Sequence record: JQ011317
Direction: 5' to 3' (one strand)
DNA length: 44,784 nt
DNA from: Escherichia phage TL-2011b
Numbering within the stretch: the first letter of the stretch is position 1; every line of letters begins with the position of its first letter. Shown in pieces: positions 192 to 35,596 of this stretch. The notes beneath the pieces were generated by a model. It was given only the letters and a program-made list of their open reading frames with translations, ran no database searches and was not told the origin of the DNA. The translations under genes and the position numbers were made by a program.

Positions 192-1439
192 GTGCTTACC
201 GATACAAAATTAAAAAACCTCAAGCCGCAGGACAAACTGTACAAGGTCTCCGATCGTGACGGGCTGTATGTAGCTGTGCTTACGTCAGGCACGGTCTCGT
301 TTCGCTATGACTACCGTATCAACGGTCGCCGCGAAACACTGGTAATCGGGCAGTATGGGCGTGACGGTATCAGCCTGGCAGAAGCGCGAGAAGAACTGAT
401 TGCTGCAAAGAAGCTGCTTAAAGCAGGCCAGTCACCGGCTGCGGCTAAACGTGACGGTATCAAAAAGATTCGTGGTGCCGAGACGTTTGCGGTACATACC
501 GACAGTTATATGAAACATGTCATCCTGGCTGACAGTACCCGCGCAATGAAGCAGGCGGTGATCGACCGTGACATACTTCCGGTTCTTGGCAACAAAATGA
601 TGACTGAAATTACCACATCGATGGTTCGTGATTTGTGTGACCGGATTGTCGAACGCGGTGGTCGGGCAACAGCAGTGCAGGCCAGGGAGATCATCAGCAG
701 CGTATACCGTCACGCCAATGACCGTGGTCATGGTTTGTTTAATCCTGCGGCTGACATTAAACCTTCGTCTATCGCCATATTTAAACCACGAGAGCGAACA
801 CTGACACCAGAAGAAATTGGCCTGTTCTTCCGCACGCTGGATGCCATTGGTGCTATGGGCACTATGAAAATGGCTTTAAAGCTGGTGCTTATCACTATGG
901 TTCGTAAAGGCGAATTCACCAATGCAACGTGGGACGAAATAGATTTTAAAAAATGGACATGGACAATTCCTTCAGACCGCATGAAGGGAAGCCGGGCGCA
1001 TGTTATTTACCTGCCTAAACAGGCACAGGATATATTGGTCGGGTTGCAGATGTACGCTGGTGGAAGTGAATATCTGGTTCCTGGTCGTTACAACTTCCGG
1101 AAGCCATTATCTAATGCCGCGCTGAACTCTCTGATCGACAGAACGGTGAAAATAATAAATGAAGATGGTGAGCATATTCAGGACTTCACCGTACATGATA
1201 TGCGCCGTACAGCCAGTACGTTGTTGCATGAGGCTGGTTATCCTTCAGACTGGATTGAAAAGGCTCTGGCACATGAGCAGAAAGGTGTGCGCGCCGTATA
1301 TAACAAAGCGGAATACGCCAGACAGCGCGCCTACATGTTGCAGCAGTGGGCCGATATGATTGATTCCTGGATTGACGGGGAGCATACGGATCTGATTCCG
1401 TTCTCCCCGTCGAAGTTTGAGAAGTGGATGGCGGGATAA
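192..1439 (+). CDS. int: Tyrosine recombinase / phage integrase (P4-type)
   Basis: 415-aa ORF, GTG start after in-frame stop; C-terminal catalytic signature (HDMRRT ... VRAVYNKAEY); N-terminal arm-binding-type domain. Confidence 0.9.
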   Translation: MLTDTKLKNLKPQDKLYKVSDRDGLYVAVLTSGTVSFRYDYRINGRRETLVIGQYGRDGISLAEAREELIAAKKLLKAGQSPAAAKRDGIKKIRGAETFAVHTDSYMKHVILADSTRAMKQAVIDRDILPVLGNKMMTEITTSMVRDLCDRIVERGGRATAVQAREIISSVYRHANDRGHGLFNPAADIKPSSIAIFKPRERTLTPEEIGLFFRTLDAIGAMGTMKMALKLVLITMVRKGEFTNATWDEIDFKKWTWTIPSDRMKGSRAHVIYLPKQAQDILVGLQMYAGGSEYLVPGRYNFRKPLSNAALNSLIDRTVKIINEDGEHIQDFTVHDMRRTASTLLHEAGYPSDWIEKALAHEQKGVRAVYNKAEYARQRAYMLQQWADMIDSWIDGEHTDLIPFSPSKFEKWMAG

Positions 1440-1445
1440 TAACGT

Positions 1446-1640
1446 TTAATAGTTCTGCTGATTTTCTTCCATCTCGGCTTCTGCTGCCAGTGATTCAATT
1501 TTGTCTGCGAATATTGCTGACAGCGTTGCAAATTCAGCATCAGTGACAGCGGGAATTGGAACAAACCTGATCCCGCTGTGTGCAAGCATGTTTGCAGTTT
1601 CAAGGCATTTCCTTAAATCTGCTGGTGATGCCCTGTTCAT
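1446..1640 (-). CDS. Hypothetical small acidic protein (64 aa)
   Basis: ATG at 1640 overlaps the methyltransferase stop (ATGA coupling); last gene of the leftward operon. No family recognised. Confidence 0.4.
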   Translation of the reverse strand: MNRASPADLRKCLETANMLAHSGIRFVPIPAVTDAEFATLSAIFADKIESLAAEAEMEENQQNY

Positions 1641-5305: not shown

Positions 5306-5890
5306 TTATTGTTTGCTTTTTTCGTTCTGGCTGATGACAAATTCAATGTAACTTTCGATCTTTGCCTTCTCTGTTTCAGGTAACAATGCGTAGCGCGAGC
5401 GGTCATAGTTGATAGTTGCAGGGTCATGCGGGTGAATCAGTAGTTCATATCCGTGACGCCCGAATGCTGATGCAACATTCTCCAGGGTGGAAATGGAAAC
5501 GCTGACCTCATTGTTTAACAGGCGGCTAATTGTCACCTGGGCGACGCCGGATGCGCGGTGAAGTTTTCCCTGTGTTGAAAGGTCGCGGCTTTCGCTCATC
5601 CAGCGTTCCAGGTTGTGAGCCGCCAGCTGACCAATGTCGCTTGGTCCGACAGGCTGAACCCCCTCCTGAGAAAGCGAGCGATCGATATCAAGCCAGTTAC
5701 GGGGTTTATTGGCGGCAGCTTCAATTTTTCGCGCAACCTGGTCGCCGATAACCTTCTTGCCAAGAGCCCAGCGGTTTACCAGATTTGCCTGAGTTCCAAG
5801 TTTTTCTGCCATCCGCGTCTGAACACCATTGAATTCACGGTCGATCAAGTCGTTGAGATTTTGCCTGCGGACGTCCTGGATACTTTTCAT
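5306..5890 (-). CDS. Prophage repressor (CI-like), two HTH domains, no S24 peptidase domain
   Basis: 194 aa; divergent from the cro-like gene across a 154-bp operator region; two HTH-like segments; no Ser/Lys autocleavage module; no Shine-Dalgarno before ATG. Confidence 0.6.
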   Translation of the reverse strand: MKSIQDVRRQNLNDLIDREFNGVQTRMAEKLGTQANLVNRWALGKKVIGDQVARKIEAAANKPRNWLDIDRSLSQEGVQPVGPSDIGQLAAHNLERWMSESRDLSTQGKLHRASGVAQVTISRLLNNEVSVSISTLENVASAFGRHGYELLIHPHDPATINYDRSRYALLPETEKAKIESYIEFVISQNEKSKQ

Positions 5891-14419: not shown

Positions 14420-14496
14420 TGGCGTGGCATGCAGGATTCGAACCTGCGACCAACCGCTTAGAAGGCGGTTGCTCTGTCCAACTGAGCTAATGCCAC
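14420..14496 (-). tRNA. tRNA-Arg (anticodon UCU)
   Basis: 77-nt cloverleaf folded by hand: acceptor GTGGCAT/ATGCCAC, D-stem GCTC/GAGC, anticodon stem ACCGC/GCGGT with loop CTTCTAA, T-arm GCAGG-TTCGAATC-CCTGC, encoded CCA. Confidence 0.85.
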
Positions 14497-31250: not shown

Positions 31251-31299
31251 AGACCGTCAGGGCTTCAGTATCGTAAAACTACGTATAGGAATTAACGAC

Positions 31300-32244
31300 A
31301 TGACGAGTATAGCAACAGCGGTATCTACTATCAACGTGCCATTCCACGGCGCAGAGCTTTATGTTGTCAATCATAACGGCGAACCATACACCCCAATGAA
31401 ACCAGTCGTTGAAGGTATGGGGCTGGACTGGAAAACGCAGTTCCGCAAGTTGCAACAACGCTTTAAGAGCTGCATGGTCGAAATGACCATTCAGCTCCCC
31501 GGTGATACTCAGCGTCGTCTGGTTATCTGTCTTGCTTTACGCAAACTTGCAGGTTGGCTGCAAACCATCAGCCCTAACAAAGTCCGCCCTGAAATCCGCG
31601 ACAAGGTAATCCAGTATCAGGAAGAGTGTGACGATGTGCTCTACGAGTACTGGACTAAAGGCCATGTGGTTAACCCACGCAAAGCTAAAAAGGCGTTGCC
31701 GGGTAAAATAACAACTGAACAGCAGGAAGCCATTAAACAACTCGTCATGAGTCGCGGTCAGTCTCTGCCAAAAGAAAAACAGGCTAAGGCGATGATCACC
31801 ATGTGGTCGTCACTGAAATCTCATTTTGGCTGTTCGTACAAAGAAATTGGTGAAGATCAATTTGCCGAAGCGTTGTCTCTTGTTGCTCGGGTTCCGCTTG
31901 AAGGGGAGTATCTCCCTGCTGGATCTGCATCAGAGAATGATGAAGTGGCAGTCAAGATGTTAGATGCGCTTCGTGAGGCAATTAAAACACAGACAAAATG
32001 TTATGGTTATCCATTGAAGCCCGGCTACCGCAGTCTGATTCATTCTCCGTCTGGTGTTCTCGGTCTGACGGAGAACTCACTGCTGATGAATCTGCTGAAC
32101 CAGTTACAGGAAGACGGGCACGATGTATCGGGCGCGGCGGCGGAGCTGACCACCATGTTCTGTTACATCGTTGGTGTGAGCAAATGCCTGCGTGATATCC
32201 AGACGCACGCGGAGTACATCAACGACAAGGCAGGGTTCTTCTGA
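31300..32244 (+). CDS. Anti-repressor (Ant) family protein 1
   Basis: 314 aa; N-terminal antirepressor-type domain (INVPFHGAELYVVNHNGEPY); C-terminal 77 aa identical to the second Ant protein. Confidence 0.65.
   Translation: MTSIATAVSTINVPFHGAELYVVNHNGEPYTPMKPVVEGMGLDWKTQFRKLQQRFKSCMVEMTIQLPGDTQRRLVICLALRKLAGWLQTISPNKVRPEIRDKVIQYQEECDDVLYEYWTKGHVVNPRKAKKALPGKITTEQQEAIKQLVMSRGQSLPKEKQAKAMITMWSSLKSHFGCSYKEIGEDQFAEALSLVARVPLEGEYLPAGSASENDEVAVKMLDALREAIKTQTKCYGYPLKPGYRSLIHSPSGVLGLTENSLLMNLLNQLQEDGHDVSGAAAELTTMFCYIVGVSKCLRDIQTHAEYINDKAGFF
32008..32244. repeat. Inverted repeat arm A (3' end of ant1)
   Basis: Reverse complement is about 97% identical to 33420-33656 (3 mismatches in the first 84 bp compared by hand). 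Confidence 0.7.
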
Positions 32245-32550: not shown

Positions 32551-32574
32551 ACAAAAAAGCCCGCGCTGCGGGCT
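32551..32574 (-). terminator. Terminator of the minus-strand two-gene operon
   Basis: Stem AGCCCGC / GCGGGCT with plus-strand A-run (U-run on the minus transcript); overlaps the stop codon. Confidence 0.55.
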
Positions 32575-33118
32575 ATTCCTTCCATTTATCAGAAAAAAGA
32601 TCTTCTTCTAAAGGCATTGGTTCTGTTTTTGTTTTCTCAAAGAATTGATAACTGATAGTGATTGCTTCCTCTTTAAACTCTTCTTGCTCAGTTATGTTGT
32701 GAGCATCTGCGTCAACAAAAAACATAACCAGCGCATCACGATTGTGATTTACCGAATAAACTAAAAAGCAATCACTTGTTGGTATGCATTTTACTTGTAC
32801 AGACGCTATATTTTTCCATGCATCCCAAGATGATTTTTTACCAGTGTGTTTTTTATCACTATCTTCTGGAATATAGTCTTGGTTATCGACATGAGTATGC
32901 CTGACATTTAGTTTAAGCATTTCTGTCGGACGAGCAAATGCAGCATCTTTACCAAGAGATGGATGGTATCCCGTTTTCCAATACTGGGTAAAGGCATCAG
33001 ATACTTTCTTCAGCTCAAGATCAGATGCACAAAGGGCCGAGAAATTTTGCGTATGCAACACTCGACCCTTATATCTGACAACTTGATTTTTATCATTCTG
33101 CGACGCAGACGAACTCAT
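32573..33118 (-). CDS. Putative toxin, YafO-like (181 aa)
   Basis: ATG at 33118; blocks LGKDAAF, LNVRHTHVDN, CFLVYSVNH resemble YafO toxins as recalled; overlaps a small upstream ORF by 26 nt. Confidence 0.4.
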   Translation of the reverse strand: MSSSASQNDKNQVVRYKGRVLHTQNFSALCASDLELKKVSDAFTQYWKTGYHPSLGKDAAFARPTEMLKLNVRHTHVDNQDYIPEDSDKKHTGKKSSWDAWKNIASVQVKCIPTSDCFLVYSVNHNRDALVMFFVDADAHNITEQEEFKEEAITISYQFFEKTKTEPMPLEEDLFSDKWKE

Positions 33119-33272
33119 AATTTTCCTTATTGTTACGAGAATCAAAGAAAGCGCGGGATACGCGACTTGCGTGATCTTTTGTCATAGTAACTTTTACGTA
33201 CTCTACGCTTCCATTGAAAGAACGTCTTGCGGCAGCTTGCGCTCTACGCATCTGCAATTTTTCGTTTCGCAT
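33093..33272 (-). CDS. Small basic protein (59 aa), putative antitoxin/regulator
   Basis: ATG at 33272 with GAGGT Shine-Dalgarno 6 nt upstream; below the ORF-track cutoff; TTACC-N5-GGTAA site 61 bp upstream. Confidence 0.4.
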   Translation of the reverse strand: MRNEKLQMRRAQAAARRSFNGSVEYVKVTMTKDHASRVSRAFFDSRNNKENYEFVCVAE

Positions 33273-33332: not shown

Positions 33333-33347
33333 TTACCCTTGAGGTAA
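33333..33347. promoter_or_regulatory. TTACC-N5-GGTAA site in the promoter of the toxin-antitoxin-like operon
   Basis: TTACCCTTGAGGTAA. Confidence 0.45.
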
Positions 33348-33419: not shown

Positions 33420-33656
33420 TCAGAAGAACCCTGCTTTGTCGTTGATGTACTCCGCGTGCGTCTGGATATCACGCAGGCATTTGCTCACACCGACGATGTA
33501 GCAGAACATGGTGGTCAGCTCCGCCGCCGCGCCCGATACGTCGTGCCCGTCTTCCTGTAACTGGTTCAGCAGATTCATCAGCAGTGAGTTCTCCGTCAGG
33601 CCGAGAACACCAGACGGCGAGTGAATCAGGCTGCGGTAGCCTGGCTTCAGCGGGGC
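33420..33656. repeat. Inverted repeat arm B (3' end of ant2)
   Basis: See arm A at 32008-32244. Confidence 0.7.
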
Positions 33657-34115
33657 GCTGTAGGTTTTGTTCTCTATCTTCATCGCCTGCATCACTGCTG
33701 ACGCCGTGGCGTTGGCTACCTGGTCGGCAACCATCTTTATGCGTTCTTCCTGCGGGAGCGAGTTTTTAATGTAACTTCCGGTGCGGCGGATCTGAGGAAG
33801 AACCTCACCTGTAACCCATTTACGAAAGCGGTAGGGGATAGTGCCTGGTGTCACCGCATCGCGGCAGCGGAGGATCAGTGTGTAGAGGCCTGACTCGGAG
33901 ATGATGATCGATTCTTGCTCACCGCCAGGGGTGTCGGTTGAAGCGACGCCCTTCTCATCATCATCAAGTTTTCGAACAGCATCTCGATGGTTTGCTATGC
34001 CTATAGCCCGACAAACATCTGAAGCGATAAACCATGGCTCACCATTAATGACGATTACCCGTATATCGGCTTGGGATTCGAAAGAAAAAATGGACGTGCT
34101 TTTTGTAGCTGTCAT
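33420..34115 (-). CDS. Anti-repressor (Ant/Bro-N) family protein 2
   Basis: 231 aa; Bro-N-like N-terminus (VIVINGEPWFIASDVCRAIGI); C-terminal 77 aa identical to ant1. Confidence 0.7.
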   Translation of the reverse strand: MTATKSTSIFSFESQADIRVIVINGEPWFIASDVCRAIGIANHRDAVRKLDDDEKGVASTDTPGGEQESIIISESGLYTLILRCRDAVTPGTIPYRFRKWVTGEVLPQIRRTGSYIKNSLPQEERIKMVADQVANATASAVMQAMKIENKTYSAPLKPGYRSLIHSPSGVLGLTENSLLMNLLNQLQEDGHDVSGAAAELTTMFCYIVGVSKCLRDIQTHAEYINDKAGFF

Positions 34116-34384
34116 AGTGGTTACCTTTTAGTCTGGTTAATCACCACTACCGACGCCAATCGGTTGGTGGTGAACTGTGCAGGGTTGGCGTAACCGGCTA
34201 AAAGGACCCGGCGCACCTTTCGGTGCCCCCACACAGCCCACCATAATACGAATGTGGCCGTGCTATACGCATAAAAAAACCGCTTGCGCGGTGAATGCGC
34301 CTTTTAGTAATCCGGGACGCCAATCCCGGCACTGGATTTTTCCAGTGCCCGATTACTATGGCACAAGAGGAGTGCGATGTAAAT

Positions 34385-34492
34385 TTACCGCAAAGGTAAT
34401 GATAAGCGCGGGGATATATAAAAATCAACCGTATTTGGTTGGTGGCGTTTAACGCTTGATCACCTGAAAGCAAGATATTACCTTTAAGGTAA
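34385..34492. promoter_or_regulatory. Two TTACC-N5-GGTAA sites in the 400-bp noncoding region upstream of ant2 and the zinc-ribbon membrane protein gene
   Basis: TTACCGCAAAGGTAA (34385-34399) and TTACCTTTAAGGTAA (34478-34492). Confidence 0.45.
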
Positions 34493-34512
34493 TGTTATTG
34501 TGAGGAAAAGCA

Positions 34513-35241
34513 ATGGAAGTTTTCTGGATAGTTGTTGGTGTGGTTGCGGTGATTATTTACGTTATCAACCAGAACAAGACTAAGATCTCTGATCGTACGG
34601 TCGTTAATCATAACAAAACGATAAAGACCGAAGATGGGGAGATAACGATTAATCGTACACAGGTGATAGAACACACCTCTACTCAGTTTCAAAAAACTGG
34701 AGGTAATGCGCCTAATATTTCCGCACCTCCTGCTTATGATAGTGCGGTAATCCAGACATATTATAAACAGCAGGAGTTAGCAAAAGAGAGGCAACTGATT
34801 CAGCCAAAGCCATTTACAGCAGAGCTTCCACCTGGAGTGTCAACGCGTCCGGCATATCATGGAAGATTCCCTGGTGATGACGTATCGTCTCAGTCACCTA
34901 AAAAAGCACCTCAGGCAGTATCAGAGCCAGCAAGAATACCTTCTGTATCGCCGTCAAAAGAAGAATCAGCTAACGAAGTTTCAAGTGCCCGCAAGCAGTG
35001 TTTGCGATGCAGAATAAACCTTCCATATGAAAAATTCAGGAAATCGTCAAAAAATCCAGATGGATTGACTAAGTGGTGTGCAAGGTGTCTCGATGGCCCA
35101 AAGAATACACGTCATATGAAGTGGTGCCCAATTTGTAATGTCCGCAGAAAACGAACCAGCTTTTACCCTAATAATCAAAATGCGGATGGCTTAATGGCAT
35201 GGTGCAAAACGTGCTGGGACGAGCACAAAGCGAAACGATAG
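34513..35241 (+). CDS. Membrane-anchored protein with two C-terminal Cys4 zinc-ribbon repeats
   Basis: N-terminal TM helix, Pro/Ser-rich linker, two repeats of C-x2-C ... DGL-x3-WC-x2-C. Confidence 0.5.
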   Translation: MEVFWIVVGVVAVIIYVINQNKTKISDRTVVNHNKTIKTEDGEITINRTQVIEHTSTQFQKTGGNAPNISAPPAYDSAVIQTYYKQQELAKERQLIQPKPFTAELPPGVSTRPAYHGRFPGDDVSSQSPKKAPQAVSEPARIPSVSPSKEESANEVSSARKQCLRCRINLPYEKFRKSSKNPDGLTKWCARCLDGPKNTRHMKWCPICNVRRKRTSFYPNNQNADGLMAWCKTCWDEHKAKR

Positions 35242-35264
35242 GCCGCTCTTGCGGCCTTTTCTTT
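35241..35264. terminator. Terminator shared by convergent genes
   Basis: Stem GGCCGC / GCGGCC, loop TCTT, then TTTTCTTT. Confidence 0.55.
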
Positions 35265-35520
35265 ATGTGGTTTGTTTTCGTAGTTGTTCGGCACAATAGT
35301 CGAGATGTGTTTGCAGATCCTGCATAGACATCTGTGAGCTGGTGACGTAGTTAATCAGTGCAGTCAGTTCGGCAAGTGGGCCATCGACATTAAATCCATC
35401 CTTATCGAGATCCCGGAGTAATTTCATCAAGTGCGATCCCTCCACCAGTGATCTGACGCCTCCCGGCGTGTGAATCCTTTCGGTAAATCCGTCTTCCAGT
35501 GGATAGTGATACTGCTGCAT
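35263..35520 (-). CDS. Stand-alone Ant C-terminal-domain protein (85 aa); candidate LexA-controlled antirepressor (Tum-like)
   Basis: ATG at 35520 with GGAGAAG Shine-Dalgarno; diverged homologue of the C-terminal domain shared by both Ant proteins; LexA box 20 bp upstream. Confidence 0.55.
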   Translation of the reverse strand: MQQYHYPLEDGFTERIHTPGGVRSLVEGSHLMKLLRDLDKDGFNVDGPLAELTALINYVTSSQMSMQDLQTHLDYCAEQLRKQTT

Positions 35521-35538
35521 CTTATCTTCTCCATGCAA

Positions 35539-35560
35539 TAACTGTATAAATATACAGTAG
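35539..35560. promoter_or_regulatory. LexA (SOS) box
   Basis: AACTGTATAAATATACAGTA: CTGT-N8-ACAG with AT-rich spacer, close to the LexA consensus. Confidence 0.75.
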
Positions 35561-35596
35561 CAAATAATTTGTTTGCTATCCAGCACGTTTTGCGAA

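Follow-up and report, generated by a model that had tools for sequence, protein, structure and literature searches.

Escherichia phage TL-2011b (sequence record JQ011317) was analysed as a single window, i.e., the whole stretch of 44,784 nucleotides (nt), with emphasis on the region 34116-34512, from which the minus-strand gene ant2 and a plus-strand gene (34513..35241) diverge. Within this region the conserved RNA module occupies 34116-34407, as homology was found to end near 34407 upon comparison with related loci, and the stretch 34408-34512 is part of a different, variable neighbour beyond the module. All RNA structure of the region lies on the minus strand, which is also the strand of ant2. 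The product of this gene exhibits a Pfam Bro-N domain (E = 2e-21), is assigned by PHROG to anti-repressor Ant, and is 100% identical to the ORF4 anti-repressor of phage vB_EcoP_ZX5, whose overexpression has been reported to reduce lysogeny and repressor transcription and to shift the phage towards the lytic cycle (PMC9782041). It is argued below, with a probability of approximately 80%, that 34116-34407 represents the leader of the ant2 operon and constitutes an RNA switch of the P1 immI type, whose two RNAs most likely prevent expression of the antirepressor in the prophage.

Two RNA families in the ant2 leader

When read along the minus strand, the elements of the locus are collinear, in the order promoter, a1, b1, terminator, C4 (with b' and a'), a2, b2 (the Shine-Dalgarno (SD) sequence of ant2) and ATG. 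They are listed below, preceded by the palindrome that adjoins the promoter.

34385..34399, no strand assigned: (A)TTACC-N5-GGTAA palindrome, at about -51 to -37 of the RNA start with its centre at about -44, touching the -35 hexamer
34355..34383, minus strand: predicted sigma-70-type promoter of the leader
34273..34348, minus strand: IsrK-like small RNA (a1b1 leader), based on Rfam, a terminator scan, helix covariation and fold
34348 to 34329, minus strand: IsrK hairpin 1
34328 to 34313, minus strand: IsrK hairpin 2, with box a1 (UUGGCGU) in its loop at 34323 to 34317
34307 to 34300, minus strand: b1 box CUAAAAGG, in the IsrK linker
34292 to 34273, minus strand: IsrK intrinsic terminator from the terminator scan, with the stem ACCGC-GCAA-GCGGT at 34292 to 34279 and U7 at 34279 to 34273
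34163..34248, minus strand: C4-type antisense RNA, with a closing stem of 17 base pairs (bp) and two internal hairpins, based on Rfam, covariation, fold and alignment with P1
34205 to 34198, minus strand: b' box CCUUUUAG, in the loop of C4 hairpin 2
34191 to 34185, minus strand: a' box ACGCCAA, in a single-stranded segment of C4
34153..34159, minus strand: a2 box UUGGCGU, on the ant2 mRNA 4 nt after C4, complementary to a'
34136..34147, minus strand: invariant GGUGGUGAUUAA, between a2 and b2, with CACCACC in the 3' strand of the C4 closing stem as its complement
34124..34131, minus strand: b2 box CUAAAAGG, complementary to b' and overlapping the ant2 SD sequence AAGG, 8 nt before the ATG (34115)
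33420..34115, minus strand: ant2, encoding a 231-amino-acid (aa) antirepressor with a Bro-N domain

The family identities of both RNAs are established by a whole-window Rfam scan at curated thresholds, which returned a match to isrK (RF01394) at 34348 to 34273 with 76.7 bits against a gathering score of 50, and a match to C4 (RF01695) at 34248 to 34163 with 77.7 bits against a gathering score of 45, the latter covering model positions 1-87 and thus the full length of the model. The corresponding E-values range from 1e-13 to 1e-15. Further features of each family are present as well: in addition to its score above gathering, the IsrK-like RNA possesses three hairpins, the last of which is a Rho-independent terminator, and the C4-type RNA is located in a leader and is co-directional with an antirepressor gene, given that ant2 starts 47 nt past C4 on the same strand. 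Judging from the homologous C4 RNA of P1, which measures 77 nt, mature C4 is predicted to extend from 34242 to 34166, likewise 77 nt.

These assignments account for most of the structures that a preliminary description of this DNA had pointed out from the sequence alone. The CACTGGA-TTTTT-TCCAGTG hairpin is found at 34330-34348 and corresponds to IsrK hairpin 1, and CCGGGA/TCCCGG, found at 34312-34317 and 34324-34329, corresponds to IsrK hairpin 2. The minus-strand terminator is real according to the terminator scan, although it had been placed some 10 nt away, at 34264-34282. Similarly, the GCACC-TTTC-GGTGC hairpin exists and forms internal hairpin 1 of C4, but it is located at 34213-34226, about 10 nt to the left of the 34221-34240 given for it. 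RNA folding, which had been suggested as a check, bears out the structured nature of the region: the 236-nt minus-strand leader folds with -103.8 kcal/mol, compared to -76.7 +/- 4.6 for shuffled sequences (z = -5.95), and none of 200 shuffles folded as well. Folded on their own, the IsrK-like RNA and the C4-type RNA yield z values of -2.9 and -4.7, respectively, and the single-sequence fold of C4 gives the same stem and two hairpins.

Covariation of stems and target boxes

Covariance across relatives, the second check that had been suggested, was assessed by aligning 24 homologous leaders and counting pairs column by column, with shuffled and slid controls. For the 44 intramolecular pairs of the leader, 95.8% of cells are paired and compensatory changes occur in 21 of the 44, values that were reached by none of 500 shuffles; slid controls were paired in at most 44.6% of cells. 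The 17-bp closing stem of C4 is paired in 99.8% of cells with six compensatory pairs, all five pairs of C4 internal hairpin 1 are compensatory, and compensatory changes are also seen in six of the seven pairs of IsrK hairpin 1.

The boxes of the C4-type RNA are complementary to the ant2 mRNA over 7 bp for a' and a2 (ACGCCAA/UUGGCGU) and over 8 bp for b' and b2 (CCUUUUAG/CUAAAAGG), and a second copy of each target, i.e., a1 and b1, is located upstream of C4 as an exact repeat of a2 and b2. No other C4 targets were detected within the window, the b-core 8-mer CUAAAAGG being present only at b1 and b2. The a'-a2 helix is paired in 96.4% of cells and five of its seven pairs show compensatory changes. 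Furthermore, the a1-a' and b1-b' helices are jointly paired in 91.9% of cells, with compensatory changes in 12 of 15 pairs (reached by 0/500 shuffles). A box table compiled from these leaders contains six a-cores, namely UUGGCGU, UUUGCAC, UUGGUCU, UUGAGAC, UUCGCAU and UUGACAG, and approximately ten b-cores, and the a- and b-cores are each matched in triplicate within their own leader. This three-way covariation can be regarded as the natural counterpart of a compensatory-mutation experiment, and as such provides strong evidence, indeed the strongest obtained here, that the boxes pair. Whole-segment RNAduplex energies of cognate and non-cognate C4/target combinations were also computed, but were uninformative because shared CCGG and GGUGGUG stretches dominate them, and they were replaced by pair counts and the box table, which is based on the longest complement.

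Of note, one viral contig (L063) carries two divergent copies of leader plus ant, at 272-504 (minus strand) and 1271-1503 (plus strand), one of which is a natural chimera with an a1 of the UUGGCGU type and an a' and a2 of the UUGGUCU type, so that a1 mismatches its own C4. In phage SfV, the a2 box is degenerate.

Pairing of GGUGGUGAUUAA with the 3' strand of the C4 stem would place a2 in a hairpin loop. As it engages part of the closing stem, this pairing and the C4 fold are mutually exclusive in an unprocessed transcript. The helix (CACCACC/GGUGGUG) is paired in 98.8% of cells without covariation in the aligned columns; being invariant, it offers no covariation evidence for or against. The P1 counterpart of this helix is seemingly compensated (CCUGCCACC / GGUAGCAGG). 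The GGUGGUGAUUAA segment also holds stop codons in two frames.

The two Rfam matches and the covariation support the earlier proposal that this is a noncoding region with a small regulatory antisense RNA for the antirepressor gene. The comparison with sar of P22 immI (RF00262), by which that proposal had been illustrated, did not survive. The sar RNA is likewise a small RNA that limits antirepressor synthesis, but it acts as a cis-antisense RNA, being read from the strand opposite to ant over the ribosome-binding site of that gene, whereas both RNAs described here are encoded on the same strand as ant2, in its upstream leader, and would act through short boxes. A sar-like cis-antisense RNA transcribed from the plus strand and pairing with the ant2 leader over its whole length is considered highly improbable, even though the window contains a sar-like element adjoining its other ant gene and a single weak terminator-like hairpin is present on the plus strand at 34286-34300. 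No plus-strand promoter-like site was found in the region, its Rfam matches are all on the minus strand, and no sar match was obtained within 33900-34700 even at E <= 1, the sar-like match of the window being located 3 kb away. In addition, conserved G-U pairs occur only in the minus-strand reading and would be C-A on the plus strand, which fixes the minus strand as the RNA strand, and a fully complementary antisense RNA would not need the repeated boxes a1/a2 and b1/b2. The element is thus one of P1-type RNA immunity in an epsilon15/phiV10-like prophage, and is not sar-like.

The least probable interpretation is that a protein is the functional product of the region, be it one of two 91-aa open reading frames (ORFs), at 34177..34452 (plus strand) and 34198..34473 (minus strand), or a 37-aa ORF that is annotated in a GenBank record. 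These ORFs do exist, yet a search of four leader peptides against Pfam and NCBIfam gave no significant match, the sole match (E = 0.023) lying far below threshold. A 91-codon stretch is open in just two of 55 homologous leaders, single-base insertions and deletions are tolerated, both 91-aa ORFs cross the recombination boundary near 34407, and substitutions in the leader are compensatory for RNA helices. The view already expressed in the preliminary description that the 91-aa ORFs look noncoding is therefore retained; they are not conserved and are not genes, and ORFs of 35 and 37 aa in the leader were rejected as genes as well, as they are not conserved and lack a significant family match. 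A coding signal in homologous regions, which would have argued for a protein, was looked for, and no conserved one was found. In the vB_EcoP_ZX5 record (L088, 1779-1892), the 37-aa ORF is annotated as a coding sequence for an 'ash family protein' over the C4 RNA, and the phiV10 record (L089, 2664-2685) labels the IsrK terminator simply as 'terminator'; the two RNAs themselves are annotated in neither record.

Promoter, palindromes, surrounding genes and distribution

The predicted promoter of the leader consists of a -35 hexamer TTTACA (34383 to 34378), a 17-nt spacer, and TG followed by the -10 hexamer CATAGT (34360 to 34355), with a predicted start at approximately 34348, and its sequence is near-invariant in 55 unique homologous leaders. 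The palindrome that touches its -35 hexamer keeps its place in nearly all of 79 related loci; its half-sites are conserved there and its spacer varies. Both TTACC-N5-GGTAA sites of the preliminary description were recovered, the other one being located outside the conserved module. The additional features of this part of the locus, and the palindrome family as a whole, are as follows.

34426..34441, minus strand: terminator-like hairpin just upstream of the RNA promoter and outside the module, a consensus match in the terminator scan only
34478..34492, no strand assigned: second palindrome, ATTACC-N5-GGTAAT, 21 nt upstream of the plus-strand gene 34513..35241 and outside the conserved RNA module
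135, 5172, 5234, 5946, 5994, 8227, 8289, 11590, 11608, 14819, 33333, 34385, 34478 and 35597: the 14 palindrome sites of the window

The putative hairpin at 34426..34441 may insulate the RNA promoter, and the palindrome at 34478 belongs to the neighbouring plus-strand gene. The 14 occurrences of TTACC-N5-GGTAA (often extended to ATTACC...GGTAAT) compare to 0.6 expected by chance, and all of them are situated between listed ORFs. Four flank a gene at 5306..5890 (minus strand) for a 194-aa repressor candidate with a double helix-turn-helix, and the palindrome at 33333 is positioned some 70 nt beyond the ant2 stop codon. The motif was not found in the P1, lambdoid, APSE and Gifsy-1 loci that bear the same RNA module, and its absence from these non-Uetakevirus loci indicates that it belongs to the epsilon15/phiV10-type backbone. 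A search of the available literature for TTACC-N5-GGTAA as a known operator returned nothing relevant. The palindromes are probably operators of the prophage repressor, which we infer to be the protein that binds them.

The plus-strand gene 34513..35241 encodes a 242-aa protein of unknown function (phrog_6762), in which inspection by eye reveals a hydrophobic N-terminus and a Cys-rich C-terminus resembling the zinc-binding motifs of endonuclease VII and Lar. Compared with vB_EcoP_ZX5 and phiV10, the gene represents an insertion; in these two phages the RNA promoter is directly preceded by a short epsilon15p19-like gene.

On the other side of ant2, a sar-like RNA (RF00262) was detected at 31298 to 31231 on the minus strand, with 44.8 bits against a gathering score of 43. 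It adjoins a P22-type ant gene with a P22_AR_N domain (31300-32244, plus strand), and the prophage therefore possesses a P22-type and a P1-type RNA-controlled antirepressor unit approximately 2 kb apart. A 292-nt inverted repeat (31976-32267/33397-33688) with 91% complementarity shows that ant and ant2 share a C-terminal domain (phrog_450), of which a third, stand-alone copy is represented by a 107-aa ORF (35263-35586, minus strand) adjoining the tail fibre gene. Between the two convergent antirepressor genes, a 190-aa ORF (32573-33145, minus strand) exhibits a YafO-toxin-like domain with E = 9e-6, just above the Pfam cut-off. The prophage also harbours a tRNA-Arg (TCT) gene at 14420-14496 on the minus strand.

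The leader is widespread. All 79 IMG/VR loci that encode Ant2 relatives carry a leader of approximately 300 nt with 80-100% identity, and about 950 out of 5426 complete Escherichia coli genomes contain these 300 nt, with no feature annotated over them in any of the 12 E. coli matches listed. Among Uetakevirus phages, the leader was detected in phiV10, vB_EcoP_ZX5, Tyrion and others, where it is unannotated or doubtfully labelled. The leader of vB_EcoP_ZX5, a phage carried by E. coli YO1, is 98% identical to that of the window. Beyond these phages, an isrK plus C4 tandem scoring above threshold precedes antirepressor-type genes in VT2-Sakai, PA28, PhiR12_2, SfV, cdtI, Kp4865-1 (Klebsiella) and Gifsy-1. 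In APSE-7 such a tandem is likewise located upstream of an antirepressor-type gene, with both RNAs annotated, and in APSE phages it had already been noted to adjoin a Bro-N gene (PMC7313666).

Comparison with known systems and a proposed circuit

One of the closest counterparts of the ant2 leader is the immI region of P1 and P7. The order annotated in the P1 record is promoter P1c4, a1, b1, c4 RNA (77 nt), a2, b2, icd and ant1/ant2, and in the P1 sequence a' is a single-stranded segment and b' a loop. The likeness extends to RNA family, fold, order of elements including a terminator-like hairpin, and the position of b2 over the SD sequence of the next gene; the distance from the -10 hexamer to the RNA start equals that of the annotated P1 promoter P1c4/P51b, the mature RNA comprises 77 nt in both (as predicted for the window), and the regulated product is in each case an antirepressor. 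An operator is also located at the promoter in both systems (the C1 operator Oc4/Op51 in P1, a putative one in the window), with repressor-type sites scattered over both genomes, although the operator palindromes are not the same. Furthermore, the P1 leader matches the Rfam model c4-a1b1 with 51 bits and, more weakly, isrK with 35 bits, terminator hairpin included, which suggests that IsrK corresponds to the a1b1 portion of a P1-type leader. The systems differ in their boxes (UUGGCGU / CUAAAAGG in the window, UUGACAG / GUUAGUG in P1), in the antirepressor, which has a Bro-N domain in the window whereas P1 Ant1 matches the KilAC/ANT domain, and in the phage itself, i.e., an epsilon15/phiV10-like podovirus prophage as opposed to the plasmid prophage P1. 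For the P1 mechanism, reviews and the GenBank annotation of P1 were relied upon: Ant synthesis is repressed by P1 c4 RNA (PMC8546580), and the C4 precursor is on the list of RNase P substrates (PMC11143913).

The following course of events is conceivable on the P1 model. Transcription would start near 34348 from the sigma-70 promoter, whose -35 hexamer touches the repressor-type palindrome. Many transcripts would probably stop at the intrinsic terminator, giving rise to an IsrK-like RNA of about 76 nt with a1 and b1, and those that read through would cross the C4-type RNA into ant2. C4 would probably be excised as a stable 77-nt RNA, its 5' end being made by RNase P in the case of P1, and would expose b' in a loop and a' as a single strand, both of which could then pair with a2 and b2 on the ant2 mRNA. 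As b2 is the SD sequence, such pairing would block translation of the antirepressor, so that the prophage repressor would remain active and incoming phages that share the RNA specificity would be blocked. As a1 and b1 can likewise pair with the C4 boxes, either in cis when read-through has occurred or in trans when carried by the short RNA, they may act as a decoy that determines the amount of free C4.

A second relative is the isrK-orf45(STnc1160)-anrP locus of Gifsy-1 in Salmonella, in which a three-hairpin IsrK, whose terminator is leaky, precedes a C4-family element and, after that, an antirepressor gene. The orf45/STnc1160 region matches C4 with 69 bits (L090, 34131-34316, minus strand), and both loci share the a-box UUGGCGU, with a1 and a' at the same nucleotide positions (28/31 and 159/162). 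The locus differs from the window in its b-box (AUCACCG), in its downstream gene, which would be of the ORF6N type judging from an N-terminus near-identical to VT2-Sakai H0107, and in its orf45, as an orf45-like ORF is not conserved in the window or its relatives. In that system the compensatory pairs G28/C162 and G31/C159 were verified experimentally, and IsrK supplied in trans raised anrP translation approximately 100-fold (PMC4825925). When placed on the Gifsy-1 sequence, the changes of the compensatory mutants G28A/C162U and G31A/C159U map precisely to a1 and a'. No reference to P1 c4 is made in that paper (Hershko-Shalev et al. 2016, PMC4825925).

The main rival, which is conceivable although unlikely, is that the Gifsy-1 type of model suffices, with a self-inhibited leader, IsrK as a pure trans-activator, translation of an upstream ORF as a requirement, and no repressor role for the C4 part. 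IsrK activation and orf45 coupling have been measured in Gifsy-1, and the minimum-energy fold of the full leader in the window reproduces the published 'structure A', in which the middle of IsrK is paired downstream (PMC4825925). An invariant AUG at the 5' end of the C4 stem also opens, in the window, a 35-codon ORF that ends 21 nt before the ant2 ATG and is the positional equivalent of Gifsy-1 orf45. Among homologues, however, the ORF from this AUG measures anywhere between 14 and more than 45 codons, shifts in frame, and mostly stops 76-90 nt before the gene; it is thus not conserved, and coupling through it cannot be a general requirement. Moreover, this model leaves unexplained why a2 and b2 covary with a' and b' near the SD sequence in every lineage. 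The Gifsy-1 double mutants that restore a1:a' were still at 60-80 times the wild-type level (PMC4825925, Table 1D), as expected if a':a2 repression were broken. In the reinterpretation offered here, these mutants would remain 60-80-fold derepressed because a':a2 is still disrupted, and the Gifsy-1 data would be compatible with the P1 model, with IsrK (a1b1) titrating C4 (a'b').

Several observations weigh against a P1-type switch at ant2. Transcription, termination efficiency, processing, translational repression and the decoy role are all carried over from work on P1 and Gifsy-1, and for the homologous Gifsy-1 locus the authors concluded that IsrK activates through orf45 translation, rather than that a C4-like repression operates (PMC4825925). 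In a permissive Rfam scan, the c4-a1b1 model (RF03163, "a1, b1 targets of C4") overlaps the 5' half of isrK in the window, but its 41.7 bits fall below the gathering score of 46.7. Pairing of the b'-b2 columns of the 24 leaders reaches only 82-86% of cells, which is partly due to misalignment of distant sequences. When the leader is folded in its entirety, IsrK and C4 are not seen as separate folds at minimum energy; instead, a1b1 and a'b' pair with each other in cis, and the SD sequence remains unpaired. Finally, no icd-like ORF was found between C4/b2 and ant2 among the ORFs of the window, where the first gene to follow b2 is ant2. Repression in P1 is mediated by icd via translational coupling and polarity. 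This ORF characterizes the P1 operon rather than the C4 RNA family, and its absence makes b2 in the window the SD sequence of the antirepressor gene itself.

The P1-type switch may also be set beside the CI RNA of satellite phage P4 (seqA/seqC), as summarized by the Gifsy-1 authors, in which a processed leader RNA pairs with repeats up- and downstream of itself (PMC4825925). The outcome there is premature transcription termination of replication genes, and not occlusion of an antirepressor SD sequence.

Both RNA families are already present in Rfam, and the copy in the window, which was previously unannotated, introduces no new principle. If the ant2 leader does function as a P1-type switch, it explains how the prophage probably restrains its second antirepressor, which is identical to one shown to push a phage towards lysis. 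More broadly, the module is shared by epsilon15-like phages, lambdoid Shiga toxin (Stx) phages, P1, APSE and Gifsy-1, it appears to be wired to the own repressor operators of each host phage, and the a-box UUGGCGU is common to the window, Stx phages, SfV, cdtI and Gifsy-1. A comparison of the IsrK model of Gifsy-1 with the C4 model of P1 suggests that they describe the same circuit. It is tentatively proposed, at somewhat less than even odds, that the IsrK-like RNA and C4 form a sponge/antisense pair with many interchangeable modular specificities (at least six a-boxes and approximately ten b-boxes), shared by unrelated phages, of which Gifsy-1 activation and P1 repression would be two halves, and through which prophages could regulate one another. 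If so, co-resident prophages that share a box could cross-regulate each other's antirepressors. The natural box variants constitute a ready set of specificity classes for RNA-based heteroimmunity and for cross-talk between co-resident prophages.

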